From Methanocaldococcus jannaschii DSM 2661 (GTDB lineage: Archaea; AGJL01; Methanococci; Methanococcales; Methanocaldococcaceae): a DNA stretch of 32,000 nt. Positions 3,971-32,000 of the stretch are shown one piece after another (the stretch's first letter is position 1; every line of letters begins with the position of its first letter). The notes under the pieces were generated by a model. That model had not been told where the DNA came from and did not search any database. It saw only the letters and a list, made by a program, of their open reading frames with translations. The stretch is from assembly GCF_000091665.1 (NCBI RefSeq), contig NC_000909.1, positions 90,870 through 122,869 of the forward strand. The letters are read 5' to 3'. The position numbers and the translations under genes are program-made.

Positions 3971-4073
3971 TATAGTGTTTTTCAAATGTTTTACGGTATA
4001 AGGTATTTATAAAAGCCCTATAGGCTTTTATATAAGTGCCTTAGAAATTTTATTAAGTTTGAAAAACACTATA
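3971..4073. promoter_or_regulatory. class A inverted-repeat pair (16 bp perfect) with a central 10-bp-stem palindrome, directly upstream of the COG1900-CBS operon
   Basis: TATAGTGTTTTTCAAA (3971-3986) versus TTTGAAAAACACTATA (4058-4073). The central palindrome is TATAAAAGCC-ctata-GGCTTTTATA (4008-4032), which also contains TATA-box-like sequence on both strands. Confidence 0.65.
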
Positions 4074-6294: not shown

Positions 6295-6556
6295 AAAATG
6301 GTGCCGAGGGAGGGATACAAACGAAACTTTTAGAAAAAGTTAAACAAAATCTTTCAGATTTTGTAGCCCGAAGCTAACGCTTCGGTTAAATGAAAACTAA
6401 AAGAGTTTTCATAGCTGGAAAGCGTAGCTTTCCATTTCATCAAAATAGGATGCATTGCCTCGCTACGCTCGGCAATGCCTCTTAAAAGAAAGTGGGGTTG
6501 CCTCTGGCAACCCTGCTCTGAGTATCCCAATAGGGCGAAGCCCTATGGAATAAAAA
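6295..6556. repeat. hairpin cassette H2 plus a duplicated tRNA-Met 3' end (att-like)
   Basis: The 22-nt direct repeat AAAATGGTGCCGAGGGAGGGAT occurs at 6295-6316 and 6553-6574. Between them are at least 8 consecutive stem-loops, e.g. ACAAAATCT-ttc-AGATTTTGT, CCGAAGC-taac-GCTTCGG, ATGAAAACT-aaaag-AGTTTTCAT, TGGAAAGC-gta-GCTTTCCA, GCATTGCC-(11)-GGCAATGC, GGGTTGCC-tct-GGCAACCC, CCCAATAGGG-cgaa-GCCCTATGG. Confidence 0.85.
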
Positions 6557-6668
6557 TGGTGCCGAGGGAGGGATTCGAACCCTCGACCTCCCGGTTTCCC
6601 AGGACCCAGGCGTAAAGCCTGGGATATCCGTATGAGCCGGGCGCTATAACCAGCTAAGCCACCTCGGC
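6557..6668 (-). tRNA. tRNA-Met (anticodon CAU) with a ~35-nt intron 3' of position 37; CCA encoded. An Ile2-type CAU tRNA cannot be excluded.
   Basis: The reverse complement reads GCCGAGGTGGCTTAGCTGGTTATAGCGCCCGGCTCATA[intron]ACCGGGAGGTCGAGGGTTCGAATCCCTCCCTCGGCACCA. Acceptor, D, anticodon and T arms all pair. Confidence 0.9.
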
Positions 6669-6759: not shown

Positions 6760-6847
6760 GCGGGGGTCGCCAAGCCAGGTCAAAGGCGCCAGATTGAGGG
6801 TCTGGTCCCGTAGGGGTTCGCGGGTTCAAATCCCGTCCCCCGCACCA
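6760..6847 (+). tRNA. tRNA-Leu (anticodon GAG), long variable arm, CCA encoded
   Basis: GCGGGGGTCGCCAAGCCAGGTCAAAGGCGCCAGATTGAGGGTCTGGTCCCGTAGGGGTTCGCGGGTTCAAATCCCGTCCCCCGCACCA folds as a class II cloverleaf. Confidence 0.93.
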
Positions 6848-6962
6848 AATATTTGATAGCGGGTTAGAAGAGGCATTGCTTCCATTAGGAAGCAATGTAT
6901 CCTGGGTATAGCAATAGGGCGAAGCCCTATGCTTTAAACCCCATCCCCCGCACCAAATATTT
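6848..6962. repeat. hairpin cassette H3 plus a duplicated tRNA-Leu 3' end (att-like)
   Basis: The 19-nt direct repeat TCCCCCGCACCAAATATTT occurs at 6837-6855 and 6944-6962. The insert contains GCATTGCTTCC-atta-GGAAGCAATG and GCAATAGGG-cgaa-GCCCTATGC stem-loops. Confidence 0.85.
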
Positions 6963-6967
6963 TGAGC

Positions 6968-10366: not shown

Positions 10367-10711
10367 TTAATACATTCTAAATGTTATCTCTACATGGATG
10401 GATTCATATTTAACACATTTAGCAAATCCCAACATTTCCAATTGAACCCTTCCAGCTATAATTTCCTTCTCTTCAAAGCCGTTTATCATTTGAGGGACTA
10501 AAGAGACATTTATAACCCTTCCTAAAATTCCTTCAGTTCCATTCCTCAAATCTTCCCTAAGTGTTGATGTTATAAAAACCAAATCTCCTTCTTTTAGGTT
10601 TTTAACTGTCTCTAAGTTTAATGCATTGATTATAGTGAATGTCTTTATATGATTTTCAATAAAATCATTAATTGCATTTTCATTAATTCCAAATAATCCA
10701 TAAACCTTCAT
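10367..10711 (-). CDS. hypothetical protein (114 aa)
   Basis: The ORF-track version extends to 10825 through repeat H4. ATG at 10711 is preceded by GGTGG, so I trimmed it. I recognise no family. Confidence 0.6.
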   Translation of the reverse strand: MKVYGLFGINENAINDFIENHIKTFTIINALNLETVKNLKEGDLVFITSTLREDLRNGTEGILGRVINVSLVPQMINGFEEKEIIAGRVQLEMLGFAKCVKYESIHVEITFRMY

Positions 10712-10774
10712 AATACCACCAAAATACCAATTCGAAAGTTTTAGCATATTCAAACAATATAAAATCTTCAGATT

Positions 10775-10964
10775 GGACATTAATTGGGACTGAAAGTCCC
10801 AACTTAATGGACGTGTGGTATCCACACCATAAAGGGGCTACGCCCCTCTTGGGATACTCCCCTAATATTGCTAATTTACACCTCCGAGCATAAGCGAGGA
10901 GGTGTTAGGTTTTGATGAACCTTTTACTAAAAGGTTCATACCAATAGGAGGTTTCCTCCTATGG
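10775..10964. repeat. hairpin cassette H4 (longest full copy), abutting the stop codon of the PAC2-like gene
   Basis: Modules: GGACATTAATTG-GGAC-tgaaa-GTCC-CAACTTAATGGAC (10775-10812), GTGTGG-tat-CCACAC, AGGGGC-tac-GCCCCT, ACACCTCC-(12)-GGAGGTGT, ATGAACCTTTT-act-AAAAGGTTCAT, CCAATAGGAGG-ttt-CCTCCTATGG (10941-10964). Confidence 0.85.
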
Positions 10965-10967
10965 TAG

Positions 10968-11672
10968 TTAAATGTACATTGGATATTCCTTTCTACTCTT
11001 TGACATCATCTTTAAATGTTGCTCTGCCAGTTCTTTAAGTTTGTTTTCAATAGCTTCAGCCTCTTTGATGAGATTTTCAATATTTACATTTAGATTGAAC
11101 ATTTTATTCAAAACCTCTAATAGATTAGCCCCCCCTCTTGGGTCTGGTCTAATTCCAACAGTTTCAGCCAACAAACCAATAGCATCAAACCCATTGTCAT
11201 GGCATTTTATTAATAAATTTCCCCCCATTCCTCCCACAACTCCAAAATCAAATATTTCAACATAATTTTTTAAATCTTCTATCAACTCTTCTTTATTTGC
11301 TATTCCAAATACTTTTTCTGATTTTCCTGCCATTATTCCTCCAAGAGAAACAAATAGTTTTGGATTTTTGTTTGAAAATGTTTTAACTATAAACTCCGCC
11401 AATCCATTAATCTTAAATGGAGAGATTATTATATCTGAAAATAAAATAATAAAATCTTTGTTTGCATACGCTCTCACTGGAGGGTAGGGAATGCCTTTCT
11501 CAATAGTTGTGAGTGGAAGGATTCCATCAACTTCAAAGTATCCAAAATATTTTAGGTTTAGGTCTTTTATTATTTGAAAACCTGCTATGCTTCCAACTAA
11601 TCCAGTTCCAGGAAATGCTTCAATAACTATGGGATTTTCAAACTCTATTTTTGCTTTTTCTACGAACTTCAT
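10968..11672 (-). CDS. PAC2 / PbaA-like proteasome assembly chaperone family protein (COG1938)
   Basis: IEAFPGTGLVGSIAG N-terminal motif and a C-terminal HbYX-like tail (..PMYI). The ORF-track start is TTG at 11684; ATG at 11672 follows GGTGGA. Confidence 0.75.
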   Translation of the reverse strand: MKFVEKAKIEFENPIVIEAFPGTGLVGSIAGFQIIKDLNLKYFGYFEVDGILPLTTIEKGIPYPPVRAYANKDFIILFSDIIISPFKINGLAEFIVKTFSNKNPKLFVSLGGIMAGKSEKVFGIANKEELIEDLKNYVEIFDFGVVGGMGGNLLIKCHDNGFDAIGLLAETVGIRPDPRGGANLLEVLNKMFNLNVNIENLIKEAEAIENKLKELAEQHLKMMSKSRKEYPMYI

Positions 11673-11738
11673 ACTATCCACCAAATTTAGCTAAGTATAA
11701 ATTATGTTTTAATTTAATTACATTTATAGTTTTCATTT

Positions 11739-15610: not shown

Positions 15611-15661
15611 CTAAGATTTCTTCATCTCTTCCTTTATTTTAAGATAGGTTATCGGTATCGC
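15611..15661 (-). pseudogene. relic duplicate of the last ~15 codons plus stop of the adjacent SemiSWEET-like gene
   Basis: The minus strand translates ..IPITYLKIKEEMKKS*, against IPITYLKIRDEMRKS* for the intact gene end (15742-15792). The match is ~78% nt identity, gap-free and codon-phased, and all three aa changes are conservative. Confidence 0.7.
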
Positions 15662-15741
15662 AAGCATATAGAGGAACCTCTATTACTATACTCCGAGTGG
15701 GCTTTACTATGTTCAGCCCCACTTTCTATATTTAGCTTTCA
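15662..15741. repeat. hairpin cassette H5 between the SemiSWEET-like gene end and its relic copy
   Basis: ATAGAGG-aa-CCTCTAT and AGTGGGC-(13)-GCCCCACT stem-loops form a GC-rich island in AT-rich spacer. Confidence 0.65.
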
Positions 15742-16011
15742 TTAAGATTTTCTCATCTCATCTCTTATTTTCAAATAAGTTATCGGTATCCAAAACATTA
15801 AAGACAAAATGTTAAATACTATTATTGGGTAATCATTTCTTAATATTCCATATATTAACCAGAGTGTCAGTCCAGTTGTGAATGTTATAACAAAAGCTAA
15901 TGAGATGTTGCTCATATCTTTCTCCTTCAAAGACTTTATTAATTGGGGGAGAGATGCAAAGGTTGTTAAAGTTCCAGCAATATAGCCGATAACAGTTATA
16001 TCAAAGTCCAT
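15742..16011 (-). CDS. SemiSWEET / PQ-loop (MtN3-like) small membrane protein, 3 TM helices
   Basis: 89 aa from ATG 16011 (GGTGAT SD; the ORF-track GTG is at 16023). The motif is LTTFASLPQLIKSLKEKDMSNISL...LWLIYG...N. Confidence 0.8.
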   Translation of the reverse strand: MDFDITVIGYIAGTLTTFASLPQLIKSLKEKDMSNISLAFVITFTTGLTLWLIYGILRNDYPIIVFNILSLMFWIPITYLKIRDEMRKS

Positions 16012-17382: not shown

Positions 17383-17483
17383 ATTTTTATTCCATATTGG
17401 TCTGATTTTAATGAAATGTTTATTCTTGGAGAGCCACACATTATTTGTGATGAGTTTCCATTCCGAATCGGTCTGATTTTAAT
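17383..17483 (-). CRISPR. CRISPR mini-array 2: 2 repeats (one degenerate), 1 spacer, with full leader
   Basis: 17454-17483 is GTTTCCATTCCGAATCGGTCTGATTTTAAT. 17383-17412 is ATTTTTATTCCATATTGGTCTGATTTTAAT (6 mismatches). The spacer is 41 nt (17413-17453). Confidence 0.8.
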
Positions 17484-17674
17484 TCTTTTAATATTTAAAA
17501 TTTTCTCCCTTTAATAAAACAGAGCATTCTTATCTCCTTAAATTCAAAAATTTAACTTATTAGTTAGAGAAATCTTATTTAGATAATTATTTAATTTTTA
17601 TTTTTAAAAATCTGAATAATTCAATAAACTCAAATATTCTAAATAATCAAACCAGCAAACCCTTAGAAATTAAA
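17484..17674 (-). promoter_or_regulatory. CRISPR leader (long-repeat segment), copy 2
   Basis: Aligns with 1762-1954 over ~190 bp at high identity. Confidence 0.8.
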
Positions 17675-17821
17675 TTTAAAACCTCTAAATAAATAATTCC
17701 TAAATACTCTTATTTTCAAAATCCAAACATATTCAACAAGACAATCAATAAACCAAACAACAAAATCAGAAATTCCAAACCTACAATTTTTCTTTTTTAT
17801 AAAAATATTTAAATAATGTAT

Positions 17822-19288: not shown

Positions 19289-19391
19289 TCTATCACCTTT
19301 AGATTAATAATTACAATTATATTACAATTTTATGCCTTTGCCACAATCTAATCGTAGTTGTTGGTGTTTATCTTACGTATTTAACTAAGCT

Positions 19392-19465
19392 TGGACATTA
19401 ATTGGGGCTGATAGCCCCAACTTAATGGACGGGAGGTATCCCAATAGGAGGTCTCCTCCTATGGG
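19392..19465. repeat. hairpin cassette H6 (minimal two-module copy) between cdhD and cdhE, overlapping the cdhD stop codon
   Basis: GGACATTAATTG-GGGC-tgata-GCCC-CAACTTAATGGAC (19392-19429) and CCCCAATAGGAGG-tct-CCTCCTATGGG (19438-19465). Confidence 0.85.
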
Positions 19466-20646
19466 CTGACAATCCACTCATAGTTGTTTGTGTTTAGTTT
19501 AACCTCTCCTGGCTTGGTTGTTAGAGTTTTTCCAATCTCTTTCAGTGTTTTAACTGATATTGGATTGAGCATCATGAATAAATCTACTCCACACATCATC
19601 ATCGTAATTCCAGTAGTTATTTCCCATAATGGTAATCTATACTCTCTTGGCCCCCATTCAGGATTGTTCATCCATGCCTCTCTTGCTCCAATAGCGTTTG
19701 TTGTTCCAGATGACATTGGCATATTAACCAACTCATCTCCCTTCAATCCATTTAATCTTAATCTAACCATTGCGTTGATTGAGAACTCAATCCCATAACC
19801 TAAAGCACATGTTGTTGGATCCATAACTATTCTATTTGGGTCCAAACCAGCTTCAACAAGTTTTCTATTTAAATCTCTCGCCATATTTGGGTCCATAATA
19901 CTCCATGCTAATACGTTGTGGTCATATTTCATAGCTGCATCAACTATCTTTTTATAATCCAACTCCAAGTTTGCTGAAGCTAATAAGCATCTATCTCCTT
20001 CTGCTACTTCAGCACATGCTTCCAAAACTAAAGGGTCTTTTTGAGGATTTCCACTACCTCCAATAACAAATGGAACATCAACTGCCTGTAATAAATCTTC
20101 CATTAATTTTGCAGCTTCTTTTGGACTTTTATCTTTAATTTTTGGGTCTGTGGAGATGTGGTGAATTGTTATCATATCTGCCCCAAATTCTTTAACACAC
20201 TTCTTTGCCCATTCGCAAGGGTCTTCCATAACATCCTGGAAAAACTGCCTAATTGGTTTTGGTAATCCTGGCATTGGTATATCGAATATATCGAAAGTAA
20301 CAACTGGTGGATTTGGCTGTGGTTCTTCAAATCTATATAAAGCTCTCTGTCCCCCAATTTTCACAACTTTTCCTCTTCCTCCTTCTGATTTTGGTTTTCC
20401 AAATTGGACTTCTCTTATATATCCAGGATATTTTTCAACTGGTGGTTCCCAATCTAACTCTGGGACATCTTTAATTTCTATAATTCCTTCTTCAGCCAAT
20501 TTTTCTTTTATTGATGGTGTTTGAGGAATAACTATTGGAGGGGCTGATGGGATATTTATAATTAATTCATCTGCGGTGATTTTTATATCCTCAATCTCAA
20601 TTCTACCAACTTTTTCAATGATTTTTATCAAAGTATTTAAATCCAT
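19459..20646 (-). CDS. cdhD: acetyl-CoA decarbonylase/synthase delta subunit (corrinoid/Fe-S protein small subunit)
   Basis: Family-typical sequence throughout. The ORF-track start at 20676 is possible, but ATG at 20646 follows a strong GGTGAGG SD. Confidence 0.92.
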   Translation of the reverse strand: MDLNTLIKIIEKVGRIEIEDIKITADELIINIPSAPPIVIPQTPSIKEKLAEEGIIEIKDVPELDWEPPVEKYPGYIREVQFGKPKSEGGRGKVVKIGGQRALYRFEEPQPNPPVVTFDIFDIPMPGLPKPIRQFFQDVMEDPCEWAKKCVKEFGADMITIHHISTDPKIKDKSPKEAAKLMEDLLQAVDVPFVIGGSGNPQKDPLVLEACAEVAEGDRCLLASANLELDYKKIVDAAMKYDHNVLAWSIMDPNMARDLNRKLVEAGLDPNRIVMDPTTCALGYGIEFSINAMVRLRLNGLKGDELVNMPMSSGTTNAIGAREAWMNNPEWGPREYRLPLWEITTGITMMMCGVDLFMMLNPISVKTLKEIGKTLTTKPGEVKLNTNNYEWIVSP

Positions 20647-20896: not shown

Positions 20897-20985
20897 GGCG
20901 CGGGGTACCGGGCTTGGTAGCCCGGGGCGGACTTCAGATCCGTCGAGGGCGAGAGCCCTCGGGGTTCGATTCCCCCCCTGCGCCG
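20897..20985 (+). tRNA. tRNA-Sec (anticodon UCA), 9/4 acceptor/T-stem architecture, CCA not encoded
   Basis: GGCGCGGGG/CCCTGCGCC is a 9-bp acceptor stem. The D-stem CCGGGC/GCCCGG is long, the anticodon loop is CTTCAGA, the extra arm is GAGGGC-gaga-GCCCTC, and the T-stem is 4 bp (GGGG-TTCGATT-CCCC) with discriminator G. Confidence 0.9.
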
Positions 20986-27189: not shown

Positions 27190-27312
27190 ATGTATCTACC
27201 CTTGGAAAACCGTGGCCTTCATTGAAGCCATAACGGCTACTCGGCACGGCCGCCTTGTGGGTAGAATGCCGAGGTGGTTTCATCCCCTGCGGAAGGTCGC
27301 CACCCGGGACAT
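27190..27312. ncRNA. GC-rich structured island, candidate ncRNA or 3'-UTR structure of unknown class (strand unresolved)
   Basis: ~120 nt of ~60% GC in AT-rich spacer. Helices: TCTACCC (27195-27201)/GGGTAGA (27259-27265), GGTGG (27273-27277)/CCACC (27300-27304), and an internal CCGTGGCC hairpin. An alternative helix CTCGGCA (27240-27246)/TGCCGAG (27267-27273) is possible. ACA triplets follow the stems on either strand. Confidence 0.5.
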
Positions 27313-28322: not shown

Positions 28323-28655
28323 TCATATAAGTTTTTGTATGATTTTTAATTCAATCTCATCACATTCATTCTTAGAAAAATAGTTTCTTAATTCGTTCTC
28401 AAACTTTATGCCATGGTTTATTGATTTTATTTTAAAGTGTATAAGTTCGTGTAATATTATATAGTGGAGAAGTTCCTCATCAAAATTTTCAACAACATAT
28501 TTGTTTAATCTTAAAGTCTTTGTTTTAAAGGAAAATGAAGCAATTTTTTGTTTCATTGGTTTTATTTCTATATTTATGCTTTCATTGATATTTAATGAAA
28601 TTAAAATTTCATTAACAATGTCTTTAATATCTTTTTTATTTTCATTGATTTTCAT
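28323..28655 (-). CDS. small HExxH zinc-metallopeptidase-like protein (DUF45/YgjP/SprT-like C-terminal module)
   Basis: 110 aa with ILHELIHFKIKSINHGIKFENEL (HExxH-x7-H). It overlaps the hsdR 3' end by 14 nt. Confidence 0.7.
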   Translation of the reverse strand: MKINENKKDIKDIVNEILISLNINESINIEIKPMKQKIASFSFKTKTLRLNKYVVENFDEELLHYIILHELIHFKIKSINHGIKFENELRNYFSKNECDEIELKIIQKLI

Positions 28656-31600
28656 AATTCTCTCCCCATATTTCTTTTAAGATGAATTCAGAAACTAAAT
28701 TATCTGATAATTCAGCCACTTTTTTAGCGTCTTCATCTTTAATTTTTCCTTTTAGCTCTTTTAATAAATCTTCAAGTAATGCACATGACAATTCTTTTTT
28801 GAATTTTTTTCTTTGTAATTTTGATAATTTATTTAAATTTTGCATTTTAGTAATTAGTTTTTCAGTATTTTCTAAGTTCAATTTAATATCTTGGTCTTTT
28901 AATATATTTTCGCCTATATAGGTGCTTATTGATTCTTTTATTCTTTCAATTGATGATTTTCCTTTTATTTTTTTATCGTAGTTGTTTTTTAATTCCATAA
29001 GGTTTTTTATGGCGTTCAAATAAATTTTGTCATCTATCCTCTTCATAATCCAGTCTCTTCTTAATCTTTCCAATCTTTCTAATATTTCCTTATATATTGG
29101 GTCGTGCTGTTTATCTAAGATGCTATTTTTTAAAATAAAATAGTAATTTGCTACTGCTCTTTTTATCTCTCTCTTTCCAATATTTTCTTTTAAAATCTTA
29201 TCTAAATCATCAGGGTTGAGATTTATCTCTTCAATTACAGTTAAATCATCAACAAGCATTTTATTGTGTATAAATGATATTAATTCCTCCCAGAATTTTC
29301 TATTTGATTTCTTTTTTGGCTTTAGTTTTTTTATTAAGTAAGCATATATGAAGGATAGAAGTTCAATATCCTCAATATAAAAAATCTTTTGTGGATAAGA
29401 ACCTAATGCTTTATAAAGTTTGATTACTGCTTTTAAATCATCTATAAGCTTTAAAATTCTCGCATTTTTTCCGTCTTCTGCATAAAATGCAATTAAATCC
29501 AATTTTTCTTTTAACTCATTGTTATTGAAATCTTTGTTTTTTGTTAAAGTTTTAAGAGTATTTACATCTATGCTTAAATCCTCATCGTTAATTTTTAAAT
29601 TTTTTAATGATTCTTTAACCATTTCTAACTTTAATTTAAATTCTTGGAAAATCTCATCAATTGAACTAATTAAATTGTTTTTGAAATCTTCCCTAATCTC
29701 TTCCTCCGCCAACATGTTGTATAATGCCATAGTTTCGGTTAAAACTTTAAATAATCCAACAGAATCAACTATTAAACCAAATTCTTTGTCTGGATATGGT
29801 CTGTTAGTTCTTGCTATTGCTTGTAGTAATCTATGCCCATACAGTGGTTTATCCAAATACATAACCTTTAATCTTGGAGCGTCAAAGCCTGTTAAAAGCA
29901 TATCTGTAACTATCAAAATTTTTGGATTTTCTGAATTTAAGAATTCTTCTCTAATAATTTGGTTAATCTCATTAAAATCGTTAGAATTTCTTTCTTTTTT
30001 AAGTTTTTTCATGTATTCAATAATTTCTTTCTCTTCTTCGTTGTGGTGATATGTCATCACAACTTCAGCCCATTTCTCTGCCTCATCTCCAAACTTTTCT
30101 TTTAAATACTTATCAAGTGCTTTTTTAAATCTAACACACCCCAATCTATTGACTGCAACAACCATTGCCTTAAATTTGAAGTTTTCAGTATCTTCTTCTA
30201 TCCTATCAACTATATATTTTGCAACTTTATCAATTCTTTTGGGGTTTAATAAAATTGTTTTTGATTTATTTATATATTTTGGAAGTTTTTTTCTATCAAA
30301 TAGGTTAATATCTTCCCCCCTTTTAATCCACTCATCAATAAATTCTTTTATATCTTCTTCATCCAATGTAATTTGAATTCCTTCTGATTTGATATCTCCT
30401 TCTTTTACAATTTGATAAGTTAATGGGAGGGTAAATTTGTCTTTTATGGAATCTCCTATGAAATACACATCTAAATAAAACTCTCCCTTTTCTGGATACG
30501 AAAATTCTGTAAATGTGTTTTTTTCATTTTTAAATACTGGTGTTCCTGTAAATCCAAATGTAATGGCATTTGGAAATGTTATTTTTCTCATACCTCCCAA
30601 AATTCCGTATTGTGTTCTGTGAGCTTCATCTATCAGTATTAGAATATGTTTTCTTTTGATATTTCCTAAGTTTATTAGGTATTCTTCTTTTTTATCTTTA
30701 TCTTTTAGTTTTTTTAGGTTTTCTATATGTTTTTTATATTCTTCAGGGTTTTTTTCTTTTAGATGTTTTAGATATATGAATGCCAATATTATTAAAAGGT
30801 CTTTTAATCCTTTTATTTTTCCTTCTTTTTCTTCTTTTTTTAATTTATCTTCAATTTTTTTGATAATCTCTTCAATGGGTTTTGATAAATCCAAATCTTC
30901 GTCATCTTTATCCTTTTCCTTATTATTATCCTTTTCTTTTTTACTTCTTTCATATTGAAATTTTTGTATTGTTGTTGTGTAAATACCCCTAACAATAACT
31001 TTATTACTTAATTCACTCATTTTTATTGATTTTATGACTTCATAAAGCTTATTTATGCTGTCAATTCTTTTTAAAATGGTTTTAAATTTTTTCTCTTGGA
31101 TTGCTTCATAAAACTCTTTACTCTGCCTTTCTAAATCAACCCTATCAACTACAAAGAAAATAACAGGATTTTCTGAGAAGTATTTGTCTAAAAAATAATT
31201 TGCTATAAAAAACATAGTGTAAGTTTTTCCACTACCCTGCCAGTGCCAAATTAAACCCTTATTTTTACTGTCTCCACTTAAATATTCATCTATTCTTTTC
31301 ATTGCCTTCTTTGTGGCAAAGTATTGGTTGTATCTTGCGATGATTTTGCTTAAAGTTTTTGTTTTGCTGTATTCGTCTTTTCTGTAAAATATGAAGTATC
31401 TTATTATTTCAAGCAATATGCTTGGATTTAAGATATAGAAGATGTCATCTTTAACAACCTTTTTTCCATTAATTTTTTGTCTAATTCTCCAATAGTATGC
31501 TGGTAAGTGTATATTTTCTTTATACCAGTTTGGCATTGTTGGAGTATATAACTGCTCTTCTCCATAAGATATTGCAAACTGAACGAACCTAAATAAATCA

Positions 31601-32000
31601 GGGCTAAATTTTTCATATCTTCTTATTTGGCTTATTCCTTCTAAATGAGAGTCAATTTTTAATGTTGCCTTTGCCTCTATTATTACAACAGGGATTCCGT
31701 TAATGAACAAAGTTATATCAGGTCTTGAATTTTTTGGATTTCCTTTAAATTCTGCTTCGCATAAATAAAAAAATGTATTTTTATCTATATTTTTATAATC
31801 AATGAGTTTAAATTTTCTTTTTTCACTTTTTTTAACTACAACTTCAATACCGTATTTTAGGTAGTCCAATATTTTTATTTCATCTGCATTTTTAAGTTCA
31901 TTTTTTATAAAATCAATAACTTCTTTAACCTCTTTTGGAGTTAAATAACTTAGTAGAGTTTTATTTATCTCCTTAAATTTTTCTTCAAAAAAGTTTGGTA
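28642..32000 (-). CDS. hsdR: type I restriction enzyme R subunit (HsdR), 5'-partial; the reading frame stays open to the window edge
   Basis: PD-(D/E)xK nuclease motif PDITLFINGIPVVIIEAKA, helicase motifs WQGSGKT (I), LIDEAHRTQ (II), FGFTGTP (III) and QAIARTNR (VI). The ORF-track start is TTG at 31869, but the frame has no stop from 31870 to 32000. Confidence 0.9.
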   Translation of the reverse strand, partial: PNFFEEKFKEINKTLLSYLTPKEVKEVIDFIKNELKNADEIKILDYLKYGIEVVVKKSEKRKFKLIDYKNIDKNTFFYLCEAEFKGNPKNSRPDITLFINGIPVVIIEAKATLKIDSHLEGISQIRRYEKFSPDLFRFVQFAISYGEEQLYTPTMPNWYKENIHLPAYYWRIRQKINGKKVVKDDIFYILNPSILLEIIRYFIFYRKDEYSKTKTLSKIIARYNQYFATKKAMKRIDEYLSGDSKNKGLIWHWQGSGKTYTMFFIANYFLDKYFSENPVIFFVVDRVDLERQSKEFYEAIQEKKFKTILKRIDSINKLYEVIKSIKMSELSNKVIVRGIYTTTIQKFQYERSKKEKDNNKEKDKDDEDLDLSKPIEEIIKKIEDKLKKEEKEGKIKGLKDLLIILAFIYLKHLKEKNPEEYKKHIENLKKLKDKDKKEEYLINLGNIKRKHILILIDEAHRTQYGILGGMRKITFPNAITFGFTGTPVFKNEKNTFTEFSYPEKGEFYLDVYFIGDSIKDKFTLPLTYQIVKEGDIKSEGIQITLDEEDIKEFIDEWIKRGEDINLFDRKKLPKYINKSKTILLNPKRIDKVAKYIVDRIEEDTENFKFKAMVVAVNRLGCVRFKKALDKYLKEKFGDEAEKWAEVVMTYHHNEEEKEIIEYMKKLKKERNSNDFNEINQIIREEFLNSENPKILIVTDMLLTGFDAPRLKVMYLDKPLYGHRLLQAIARTNRPYPDKEFGLIVDSVGLFKVLTETMALYNMLAEEEIREDFKNNLISSIDEIFQEFKLKLEMVKESLKNLKINDEDLSIDVNTLKTLTKNKDFNNNELKEKLDLIAFYAEDGKNARILKLIDDLKAVIKLYKALGSYPQKIFYIEDIELLSFIYAYLIKKLKPKKKSNRKFWEELISFIHNKMLVDDLTVIEEINLNPDDLDKILKENIGKREIKRAVANYYFILKNSILDKQHDPIYKEILERLERLRRDWIMKRIDDKIYLNAIKNLMELKNNYDKKIKGKSSIERIKESISTYIGENILKDQDIKLNLENTEKLITKMQNLNKLSKLQRKKFKKELSCALLEDLLKELKGKIKDEDAKKVAELSDNLVSEFILKEIWGENYENQ

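Follow-up and report, generated by a model that had tools for sequence, protein, structure and literature searches.

Hairpin cassettes in the window

The DNA analyzed here, referred to as the window, is a stretch of 32,000 nucleotides from Methanocaldococcus jannaschii DSM 2661. Its gene order agreed with MJ0093-MJ0098 and onward, and the PAC2-like open reading frame at 10968-11684 was 100% identical over 238 amino acids to MJ0106 of M. jannaschii DSM 2661. Several genes of the window are adjoined by cassettes of short hairpins, which form GC-rich islands in a genome of 31% GC. The cassette at 10775-10964 (190 nt, plus strand) lies between the stop codon of PAC2/MJ0106 (10968-10970) and the start of a DUF473 gene (10711). 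It begins with a hairpin element, module 1 (10775-10812), followed by a hairpin (10813-10827), a degenerate inverted copy of module 2 (10828-10851), a hairpin with tandem G.A pairs (10877-10904; CCGAGC-AUAA-GCGAGG), and a further hairpin (10915-10939), and it ends with module 2 itself (10941-10964). This copy was predicted to fold into a row of hairpins on either strand, with a stability far above that of shuffled sequence and z scores of -8.1 for the plus-strand RNA, -7.6 for the minus-strand RNA, and -10.5 for DNA; the folding energies of its two strands are nearly equal.

The same two modules terminate two other cassettes on the plus strand. One of them, at 1-175, is the right-hand 175 nt of a 284-nt cassette that is visible in full in L063/L064. 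It adjoins the aIF2-beta stop codon (176-178) on the side of the next gene and contains a hairpin (71-89), module 1 (101-138), and module 2 (149-172). The other was found at cdhD (19340-19495). Here, an insert of 95 nt (19370-19464) starts with 23 nt of AT-rich sequence, which are followed by module 1 (19393-19430) and module 2 (19441-19464); on either side of it stand diverged duplicates of about 30 nt from the cdhD 3' end (19340-19369 and 19465-19495, 81% identical). On inspection of the sequence, no oligo-T terminator signal was found to accompany these three cassettes.

Further cassettes of the window end with variants of module 2, showing that the family is not limited to the three copies recognized before. 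Adjacent to an intron-containing tRNA gene (6295-6574, plus strand), about 236 nt (6317-6552) with five hairpins and a terminal module-2 variant (6527-6548) are enclosed by direct repeats of 22 nt (6295-6316 and 6553-6574), which consist of the tRNA 3' end plus 4 nt of trailer. At tRNA-Leu (6832-6965, plus strand), a cassette of 83 nt (6857-6939), comprising a hairpin (6874-6897) and a module-2 variant (6911-6932), stands between direct repeats of 25 and 26 nt (6832-6856 and 6940-6965) that correspond to the tRNA-Leu 3' end and trailer. The cassette at the PQ-loop gene (15612-15798, minus strand) holds 75 nt (15668-15742) in reverse orientation, with its module-2 variant at 15667-15685, and the direct repeats on its two sides (15612-15667 and 15743-15798; 56 nt, 80% identical) duplicate the 3' end of that gene.

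Sequence and fold of the terminal modules

Module 1 has the form GGACATTAATTG-N13-CAACTTAATGGAC. Exact matches occurred in the window only at 101-138, 10775-10812, and 19393-19430, all on the plus strand, and dinucleotide-preserving shuffles of the window yielded none. Module 2, CCAATAGGAGG-NNN-CCTCCTATGG, matched exactly only at 149-172, 10941-10964, and 19441-19464, again on the plus strand of the window, as against zero matches expected by chance. The presence of three copies with two common terminal modules, as described in an earlier note on this DNA, was thus confirmed.

Module 1 was predicted to fold into a hairpin of about 17 bp. Its closing pair is followed by an invariant tandem G.A/A.G and, further inward, by nine pairs with one bulged C on the 3' side, a variable GC stem of 4 bp, and a loop of the UGAAA type. 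In the window copies, a constant G-C pair encloses apical stems of CCCC/GGGG, GGAC/GTCC, and GGGC/GCCC, with loops of TGTAA, TGAAA, and TGATA. The compensatory character of the stem changes, previously proposed from these three copies, was verified with 26 distinct module 1-module 2 units collected from the window and relatives. Pairing was retained in 99.2% of the cells, four pairs (the closing pair and three apical pairs) varied on both strands of the stem, and the covariation score was reached by no shuffle. For the closing pair, 14 copies have A-U and 11 have G-C, and intermediates were not seen; the apical stem exists in five variants. Compensatory changes in module 1 are thus real. The lower-stem invariance is partly fixed by the search pattern and counts as weak evidence only.

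The tandem mismatch of module 1 is G.A on the plus strand only; the minus strand would give C.U/U.C. A tandem G.A motif is also present in the hairpin at 10877-10904, combined with an AUAA or GUAA (GNRA-like) loop. The tandem G.A is the sole indication that the plus strand is the folding strand. Within one cassette, individual modules can point either way, so that no single strand holds every G.A motif. When wobble pairs were compared with A.C mismatches in the stems, the strand signal was not significant (5 versus 2).

For module 2, a hairpin of about 12-14 bp was predicted, in which a single A bulges out on the 5' side (NC-A-ATAG...CTAT-GN). Its 5' flank, GGGTAT, is conserved, and the GTAT of this flank precedes the module at more than 40 of 61 sites. 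The inner stem has over 12 fully complementary variants, with 190 Watson-Crick, 6 wobble, and 13 mismatched pairs. The outer pair alternates between CC/GG and GC/GC.

Empty orthologous sites and target duplications

Orthologous regions were located by protein-anchored look-up in M. bathoardescens, M. fervens, Methanocaldococcus sp. 16A, M. indicus, M. infernus, and vent strains. Every cassette site of the window proved to have an empty orthologue in other Methanocaldococcus. At the aIF2-beta site, a metagenome-assembled genome (MAG), L062, reads TAA-GGGAAATT-ATG, as opposed to the 284-nt cassette in the window lineage. The PAC2-DUF473 spacer of sp. 16A measures 13 nt and has no cassette; in the other five of the six genomes compared (M. 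jannaschii, M. bathoardescens, M. fervens, and two vent strains), it is occupied by five different cassettes. Four of these place a module-2-type hairpin against the stop codon, and in M. fervens another hairpin intervenes. The cdhD-cdhE spacer, 170 nt long in the window, is 10-31 nt in L072, M. indicus, and M. infernus. Both tRNA-adjacent cassettes are missing from M. bathoardescens, M. fervens, and sp. 16A, and the cassette at 15668-15742 is missing at the orthologous site in L045. A reciprocal case was also observed, in which L045 has an insert at a gene start that is missing from the window. The cassettes are insertions. All of these presence/absence contrasts are between species at 85-93% identity, and thus no recent movement is demonstrated by them.

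At cdhD, the insertion has rewritten the end of the protein and supplied a stop codon. The insertion break fell three codons ahead of the stop, a TAG within module 2 now ends the reading frame, and the displaced copy has decayed. The CdhD C terminus accordingly reads ...NNYEWIVSP* in place of ...NNYDWIVAKA*.

Target duplications were detected at no fewer than 12 independent inserts and measured 22, 25, 30-33, 33, 35, 36, 40, 43, 47, 55, 56, and 57 nt. Those of the window are 22 nt (tRNA), 25 nt (tRNA-Leu), 56 nt (PQ-loop gene), and about 30 nt (cdhD) long; the cases outside the window, most of which come from metagenome assemblies, are 33, 35, 36, 40, 43, 47, 55, and 57 nt long. For the aIF2-beta and PAC2 cassettes, no target duplication was detectable. 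A flanking repeat with at least 20 identities was seen at 13 of about 33 non-CRISPR module-2 sites, compared with 5.2% of 1500 random positions, and empty sites, where available, hold a single copy of the repeated sequence. The duplicated sequence differs from site to site, being derived from two tRNAs, gene starts, gene ends, and CRISPR repeats. Neither a short target duplication of fixed length nor a conserved target motif was found at the junctions.

The two ends of the inserts are of different kinds. In nearly all cases, module 2 provides a precise end at ...CTATG(G/C), which lies directly against one target duplicate or within a few nucleotides of it. The opposite end is imprecise: module 1, another hairpin, or unrelated AT-rich sequence may be found there, and the unrelated stretch measures 0-40 nt. 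Where additional nucleotides separate the left duplicate from module 1, they were identified as a diverged part of the duplication in L003b; the same derivation was rejected for L006, L003a, and the third window copy, at cdhD. In one type of insert, module 2 is missing, and the boundaries are module 1 and the foot of a different hairpin. The insert boundaries in L009 lie at hairpin feet, the sequence between the two duplicates running GGAC...GTTTCC.

A rule by which the copies occupy gene 3' ends in one orientation, as stated in the earlier note, holds for the three window copies. At aIF2-beta and PAC2 (copies 1 and 2), module 2 lies 3 nt and 3 nt, respectively, from the stop codon of the minus-strand gene on its right, and at cdhD (copy 3) it overlaps the stop by 6 nt, with the TAG of cdhD inside the module. 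The rule does not extend to the wider sample of module-2 sites, where stop and start codons, the 3' ends of tRNAs, and CRISPR repeats are all found next to the module-2 end. The closeness to stop codons can be explained by insertion into the 8-31-nt operon junctions of a compact genome, and an element set against a stop codon would be harmless because the duplication leaves one complete copy of each flanking gene end.

Exchange of modules and distribution of the family

The modules recur between loci in differing combinations and in both orientations. The internal block 10813-10940 of the PAC2 cassette was found as a whole, at 85-94% identity, in at least 10 other loci. The hairpins inserted between the terminal modules of this copy are consequently not unrelated sequences, as had been assumed, and one of them (10828-10851) is the degenerate inverted module 2 mentioned above. 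Inverted copies of module 2 are confined to some of the long forms. The description of the elements as mosaics of exchangeable hairpins, and their comparison with bacterial REP/BIME elements, was apt, as modules do recombine between loci.

An exact-pattern scan detected module 1 in Methanocaldococcus sp. 16A and in vent MAGs, and it was present in about 35 Methanocaldococcus metagenome contigs. Taken together, the family was seen in M. jannaschii, M. bathoardescens, sp. 16A, and vent MAGs. Module 2 did not occur in the roughly 21 kb examined of M. indicus and of M. infernus each. Viral, phage, and plasmid collections contained no counterpart and returned nothing or chance coding matches only. 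In this sample, the family is limited to one lineage.

Enzymes that could move the cassettes were sought in the same material. No transposase, reverse transcriptase, integrase, or HUH nuclease was encoded in the window or beside any copy in about 0.6 Mb from relatives, which is a weak negative; this search covered the HUH/RAYT-like and IS200/IS605 transposases that the earlier note had named as candidates. Pfam analysis of a 387-amino acid open reading frame of M. fervens, a 243-amino acid open reading frame of M. bathoardescens, and the open reading frames of the window likewise gave no transposase, reverse transcriptase, or integrase. RAYT was not found among the neighboring genes of the copies. 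A related autonomous insertion sequence with matching ends was found neither in the 0.6 Mb of loci nor in the viral, phage, and plasmid collections.

A probable mobile-DNA explanation

The cassettes exist as described, and selfish mobile DNA accounts for them better than a dedicated RNA element would. We consider it probable, at roughly 0.7, that the cassettes are non-autonomous selfish mobile DNA consisting of strings of short GC-rich hairpin modules, which spread in Methanocaldococcus genomes. Because they are absent from orthologous sites and are accompanied by long target duplications, mobility is their best-supported property, rather than a function at mRNA 3' ends.

The defined end of the mobile unit would be the foot of module 2 (GGGTAT-NNC-A-ATAG-stem-loop-stem-CTATG[G/C]). 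The opposite end would vary, such that neighboring modules and 5-40 nt of extra sequence could be carried along and mosaics would arise. Each insertion would duplicate 22-57 nt of the target, and landing in an operon junction of 8-30 nt, a tRNA 3' end, or a CRISPR repeat would leave each flanking gene with one intact copy. Compensatory change may keep the hairpins in place because a propagating intermediate, or a protein binding to it, needs the fold. The folded strand would most likely be the plus strand, read from module 1 to module 2, in the form of single-stranded DNA or RNA. That the tandem G.A pairs form on the plus strand only makes a single-stranded plus-strand intermediate likely. The target might then prime copying at the 3' end of this single strand, formed by module 2, while a second, staggered break would be made at a distance of 20-57 nt. 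Target-primed copying is the mechanism that we prefer, inferring it from an insertion footprint that matches that of target-primed retroposition. Consequences for the host would be side effects: genes of an operon spaced apart, the C terminus of CdhD altered, and CRISPR arrays capped in some strains.

The footprint of non-LTR retroposons and SINEs is similar in several respects: the 3' end is precise, the 5' end varies and may include additional or chimeric sequence, target duplications differ in length or are lacking altogether, and copies are mosaic. The likeness concerns the footprint only, as the cassettes have neither poly-A nor any other 3' tail. To our knowledge, these genomes encode no reverse transcriptase, and we know of no elements of the non-LTR type in archaea; a reverse-transcriptase domain was not found in the open reading frames examined.

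Alternative explanations

The cassettes might instead be derivatives of the MITE or REP kind that are moved in trans by an enzyme encoded elsewhere, such as an IS200/IS605 Y1 (HUH) transposase, a RAYT, or a DDE transposase of the IS1634/IS1549 type, an alternative that we regard as a lesser possibility. The terminal modules are imperfect hairpins with a single bulge each (C in module 1, A in module 2), their lower stems are conserved in sequence while the apical stems vary in a structure-keeping way, as is typical of hairpins recognized by proteins, and the conserved GTAT flank of module 2 recalls the GTAG-hairpin of REPs. Module 2 is moreover self-complementary and could represent two abutted inverted ends. 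Y1/HUH and REP/RAYT systems, however, leave no target duplication and need a fixed tetranucleotide, whereas the duplications observed here span 22-57 nt and no motif was found. The two ends of an insert are unrelated, one of them is imprecise, and none of the open reading frames examined was a candidate gene.

Each of the systems concerned resembles the cassettes in part. REP/BIME elements share with them imperfect GC-rich palindromes of 20-40 nt, a conserved 5' flank, mosaic arrangement, and a location between operon genes near stop codons, where such elements can affect the mRNA; REPs are linked to RAYT and make no target duplication, in contrast to cassettes with one precise end, duplications of 22-57 nt, and no RAYT in sight. 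MITEs and PATEs are likewise small non-autonomous repeats with terminal or subterminal hairpins that are present in some strains and absent from others. MITEs, though, have terminal inverted repeats and short duplications of fixed length, unlike the unrelated cassette ends and the duplications of 0-57 nt, and PATEs, which are IS200/IS605-derived repeats of haloarchaea and cyanobacteria, produce no duplication and use a fixed tetra- or pentanucleotide target. Insertion sequences of the IS1634/IS1549 type provide a prokaryotic precedent for direct repeats of tens of bases and variable length. Such sequences are autonomous, measure about 1.5-2 kb, and have a DDE transposase together with inverted terminal repeats; none was found here.

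It appears unlikely that the cassettes are host-selected cis-acting RNA elements of 3' untranslated or intercistronic regions, which would block exonucleases, cause RNA polymerase or ribosomes to pause, or uncouple the genes of an operon; such a role could coexist with mobility. The distances of 3, 3, and -6 nt between the window copies and the stop codons of co-oriented upstream genes agree with this idea, as do the probable co-transcription of copies within operon junctions, the very stable predicted folds, and the covariation of the stems. At the PAC2 site, each of the five cassettes found in six genomes has a module-2-type hairpin at or near the stop codon. Two observations weaken a role at mRNA 3' ends, however. 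In each of the three window copies, the G.A pairs form on the strand antisense to the upstream genes, and sister species have the orthologous genes without a cassette. Moreover, what adjoins module 2 across the family follows no rule, with start codons, stop codons, tRNAs, and CRISPR repeats all represented, and an oligo-T signal is lacking.

Template switching during replication or break repair (MMBIR/FoSTeS-like), in which no dedicated enzyme takes part, is equally doubtful. A polymerase would stall at the foot of a hairpin, jump, copy, and return upstream of its starting point, thereby generating the duplication. The variable duplication length, insert boundaries at hairpin feet (e.g. in L009), and filler sequence at one junction would follow from such events; so would the mosaics, the use of both orientations, the lack of a transposase, and the structured nature of targets such as tRNA genes and CRISPR repeats. 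What this process leaves unexplained is the recurrence of module 2, with its GTAT flank and bulged A, as the terminus of most inserts, together with the strong conservation of module sequences across species.

Two further readings are very improbable. GC-rich islands at 31% genomic GC, stable folds, and motifs of the G.A and GNRA type would also be expected of independent high-GC small non-coding RNA genes, the Hgc class known from GC screens of AT-rich hyperthermophiles, to which the earlier note had tentatively assigned the cassettes; an Rfam search of the whole window, Hgc families included, matched only tRNAs and CRISPR repeats at gathering thresholds and at E <= 0.5, a separate search of 10700-11050 gave chance-level hits only (E > 4), and multicopy mosaics that are missing at orthologous sites and flanked by target duplications are unlike RNA genes. 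The tRNA-flanked cassettes could be read as decayed integrase-mediated elements (attL-remnant-attR) that left hairpins behind, given that direct repeats of a tRNA 3' end (22 and 25 nt) around foreign DNA are the classic signature of tRNA integration, but the same architecture at starts and ends of protein genes and at CRISPR repeats, with a different duplicate each time, excludes a single site-specific integrase, and inserts of 53-395 nt share their modules with non-tRNA copies and have no viral or plasmid counterpart that we could find. An integrase-type element was rejected for the family at large as well, there being no att core common to all sites. The duplicated tRNA 3' ends mimic integrase att sites (attL/attR).

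Relation to repeats described before

Passages in PMC2229807 and PMC2996958 record that palindromic repeats of M. jannaschii were reported in 2005. In themselves, the elements described here are ordinary, and the earlier note most likely rediscovered part of that repeat set. The catalogue of Suyama, Lathe and Bork (FEBS Lett 2005) reportedly lists 141 palindromic repeats in three groups, MJRE1-3, which make up about 6% of the extragenic DNA and include a few copies in genes. The window cassettes most likely belong to this catalogue, the two having been likened by description. MJRE1-3 and the cassettes occur in the same organism as multicopy, short palindromic hairpins, mostly extragenic and in some instances reaching into coding sequence, and both are regarded as selfish insertions. 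As far as we know, the MJRE description comprises no long variable target duplications, no precise module-2 end, no empty orthologous sites, no shuffling of modules, and no CRISPR trailers. In the literature searched, we located no account of target duplications or of CRISPR-trailer hairpins in Methanocaldococcus.

The cassettes also resemble the Rickettsia palindromic elements (RPE), selfish palindromes that enter or fuse with coding sequence while the gene is preserved, as was observed here for the C terminus of CdhD. RPEs differ in that they are 100-150 nt long, belong to a bacterial lineage, lie mostly in-frame within genes, and have no reported long target duplication.

The way in which the mobile cassettes move may be of wider interest, since the combination of long variable duplications, one precise end, and shuffled modules fits no established mechanism of archaeal transposition. 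Apart from the rewritten end of CdhD, their visible effects include the splitting of operon junctions. The elements are relevant to the annotation of att sites, small RNAs, terminators, and array ends in Methanococcales, and we consider the insertion footprint and the association with CRISPR trailers worthy of follow-up.

Elements at the ends of CRISPR arrays

The two CRISPR arrays of the window contain no trailer element. In vent strains, a subfamily with the A-U closing pair fills the last-spacer position of about 20 distinct CRISPR arrays, and in some strains the trailers of nearly every array examined are occupied. The element is preceded by a repeat whose 3' end is altered and followed by a final repeat without its first bases. 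It was located on the crRNA sense strand, and the leader lay upstream of it in 16 of 16 testable arrays. In many arrays, the repeat to its left is of another type than the remaining repeats of that array, which suggests that the partial repeat moves together with the element and recombines within the TCAGACC core.

Tentatively, and with considerably less confidence than in mobility as such, we propose that Methanocaldococcus may possess an undescribed form of DNA mobility, in which hairpin strings ending with module 2 would be copied from a single-stranded plus-strand intermediate into staggered breaks, CRISPR arrays being capped and perhaps seeded in the process. If this were true, target duplications of 20-57 nt would represent a retroposition-like footprint in an archaeon.

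In M. bathoardescens, the long form of the element is located upstream of a leader instead.

Hairpin units at the ends of CRISPR arrays

In vent strains of Methanocaldococcus, the position of the last CRISPR spacer is held by a unit consisting of module 1 and module 2, the conserved terminal hairpins of the cassettes, and belonging to the AGAC...GGAT subfamily. The unit was found in both a short and a long form. Sites were located in the vent-strain loci L045 (480-630) and L072 (4434-4615 and 11358-11429) and in about 20 further metagenome loci (L010-L056). On one side of the unit is a repeat whose 3' end is altered (…GGAGGTTAAAGTTT), and on the other side is the final repeat of the array, which is truncated at its 5' end. 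The unit lies on the crRNA sense strand. A long-form cassette in reverse orientation was present in M. bathoardescens JH146 (L077 2921-3150), where it spans the gap from the stop codon of the SHMT gene to the leader of a CRISPR array of at least 15 repeats.

The two CRISPR loci of the window are both encoded on the minus strand, and their leaders are homologous (1759-1975 versus 17480-17696, 82% identical). In locus 1 (1430-1990), three repeats share one type, and the terminal repeat after them is of a second type. Locus 2 (17383-17720) is a mini-array of one repeat and one degenerate repeat. The hairpin element was absent from the trailers of both loci.

Inserts at gene starts and gene ends

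At L045 1992-2110, a 73-nt hairpin insert is accompanied by a 47-nt duplication of the gene start. The duplication places a second Shine-Dalgarno sequence, an ATG, and 11 codons upstream of the gene, resulting in a short upstream open reading frame that runs into module 2. In several inserts in relatives (L006 5676-5800, L003 5867-6010, and L063 ~1800-1865), the AT-rich sequence at the end opposite module 2 contains TATA-like and Shine-Dalgarno/ATG-like motifs facing the adjoining gene. One example, CGTTTATAAAAAG, lies 25 nt upstream of the gene that follows aIF2-beta. In a genome with 31% GC, these motifs are candidate expression signals, and the inserts might provide such signals or take the place of existing ones.

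The 3' end of cdhD was altered as well (19459-19500). Upon insertion, the C terminus of CdhD changed from the ancestral ...DWIVAKA-stop to ...EWIVSP-stop, and the present stop codon comes from module 2. A premature TAG has arisen in the copy of the gene end that was displaced (19340-19369).

An intron-containing tRNA gene and the module-2 core

On the minus strand, a tRNA gene (6557-6668) that contains an intron of 37 nt lies beside a cassette. A second copy of its last 18 nt, including CCA, together with 4 nt of trailer, is found at a distance of 236 nt. The tRNA-Stop reported by ARAGORN at 6557-6642 was a miscall of this gene, for which Rfam placed the full tRNA at 6560-6668. Elsewhere in the window, a tRNA-Sec gene (20897-20984) scored 72.5 bits against its Rfam model.

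The most frequent core of module 2 is GCGAAGC or GCGGAGC (6530-6546, 6914-6930, and many loci). d(GCGAAGC) is an unusually heat-stable DNA mini-hairpin motif, and a core of this type would suit a hairpin forming in single-stranded DNA at 85 °C.

Sequences outside the hairpin family

The earlier note had listed a possible cassette near 27190-27312. The GC-rich stretch of ~120 nt found there (27195-27312), 3' of an aIF-2B-family gene, matched no Rfam family, did not resemble the hairpin modules, and showed only a weak folding excess (z about -2.1 to -2.3). It does not belong to the family. Two perfect intergenic hairpins, CGCCTTCT-tat-AGAAGGCG (1068-1086) and TATAAAAGCC-ctata-GGCTTTTATA (4008-4032), likewise fall outside the module families. 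The right end of the window is occupied by a gene for a type I restriction R-subunit (28642-31869).
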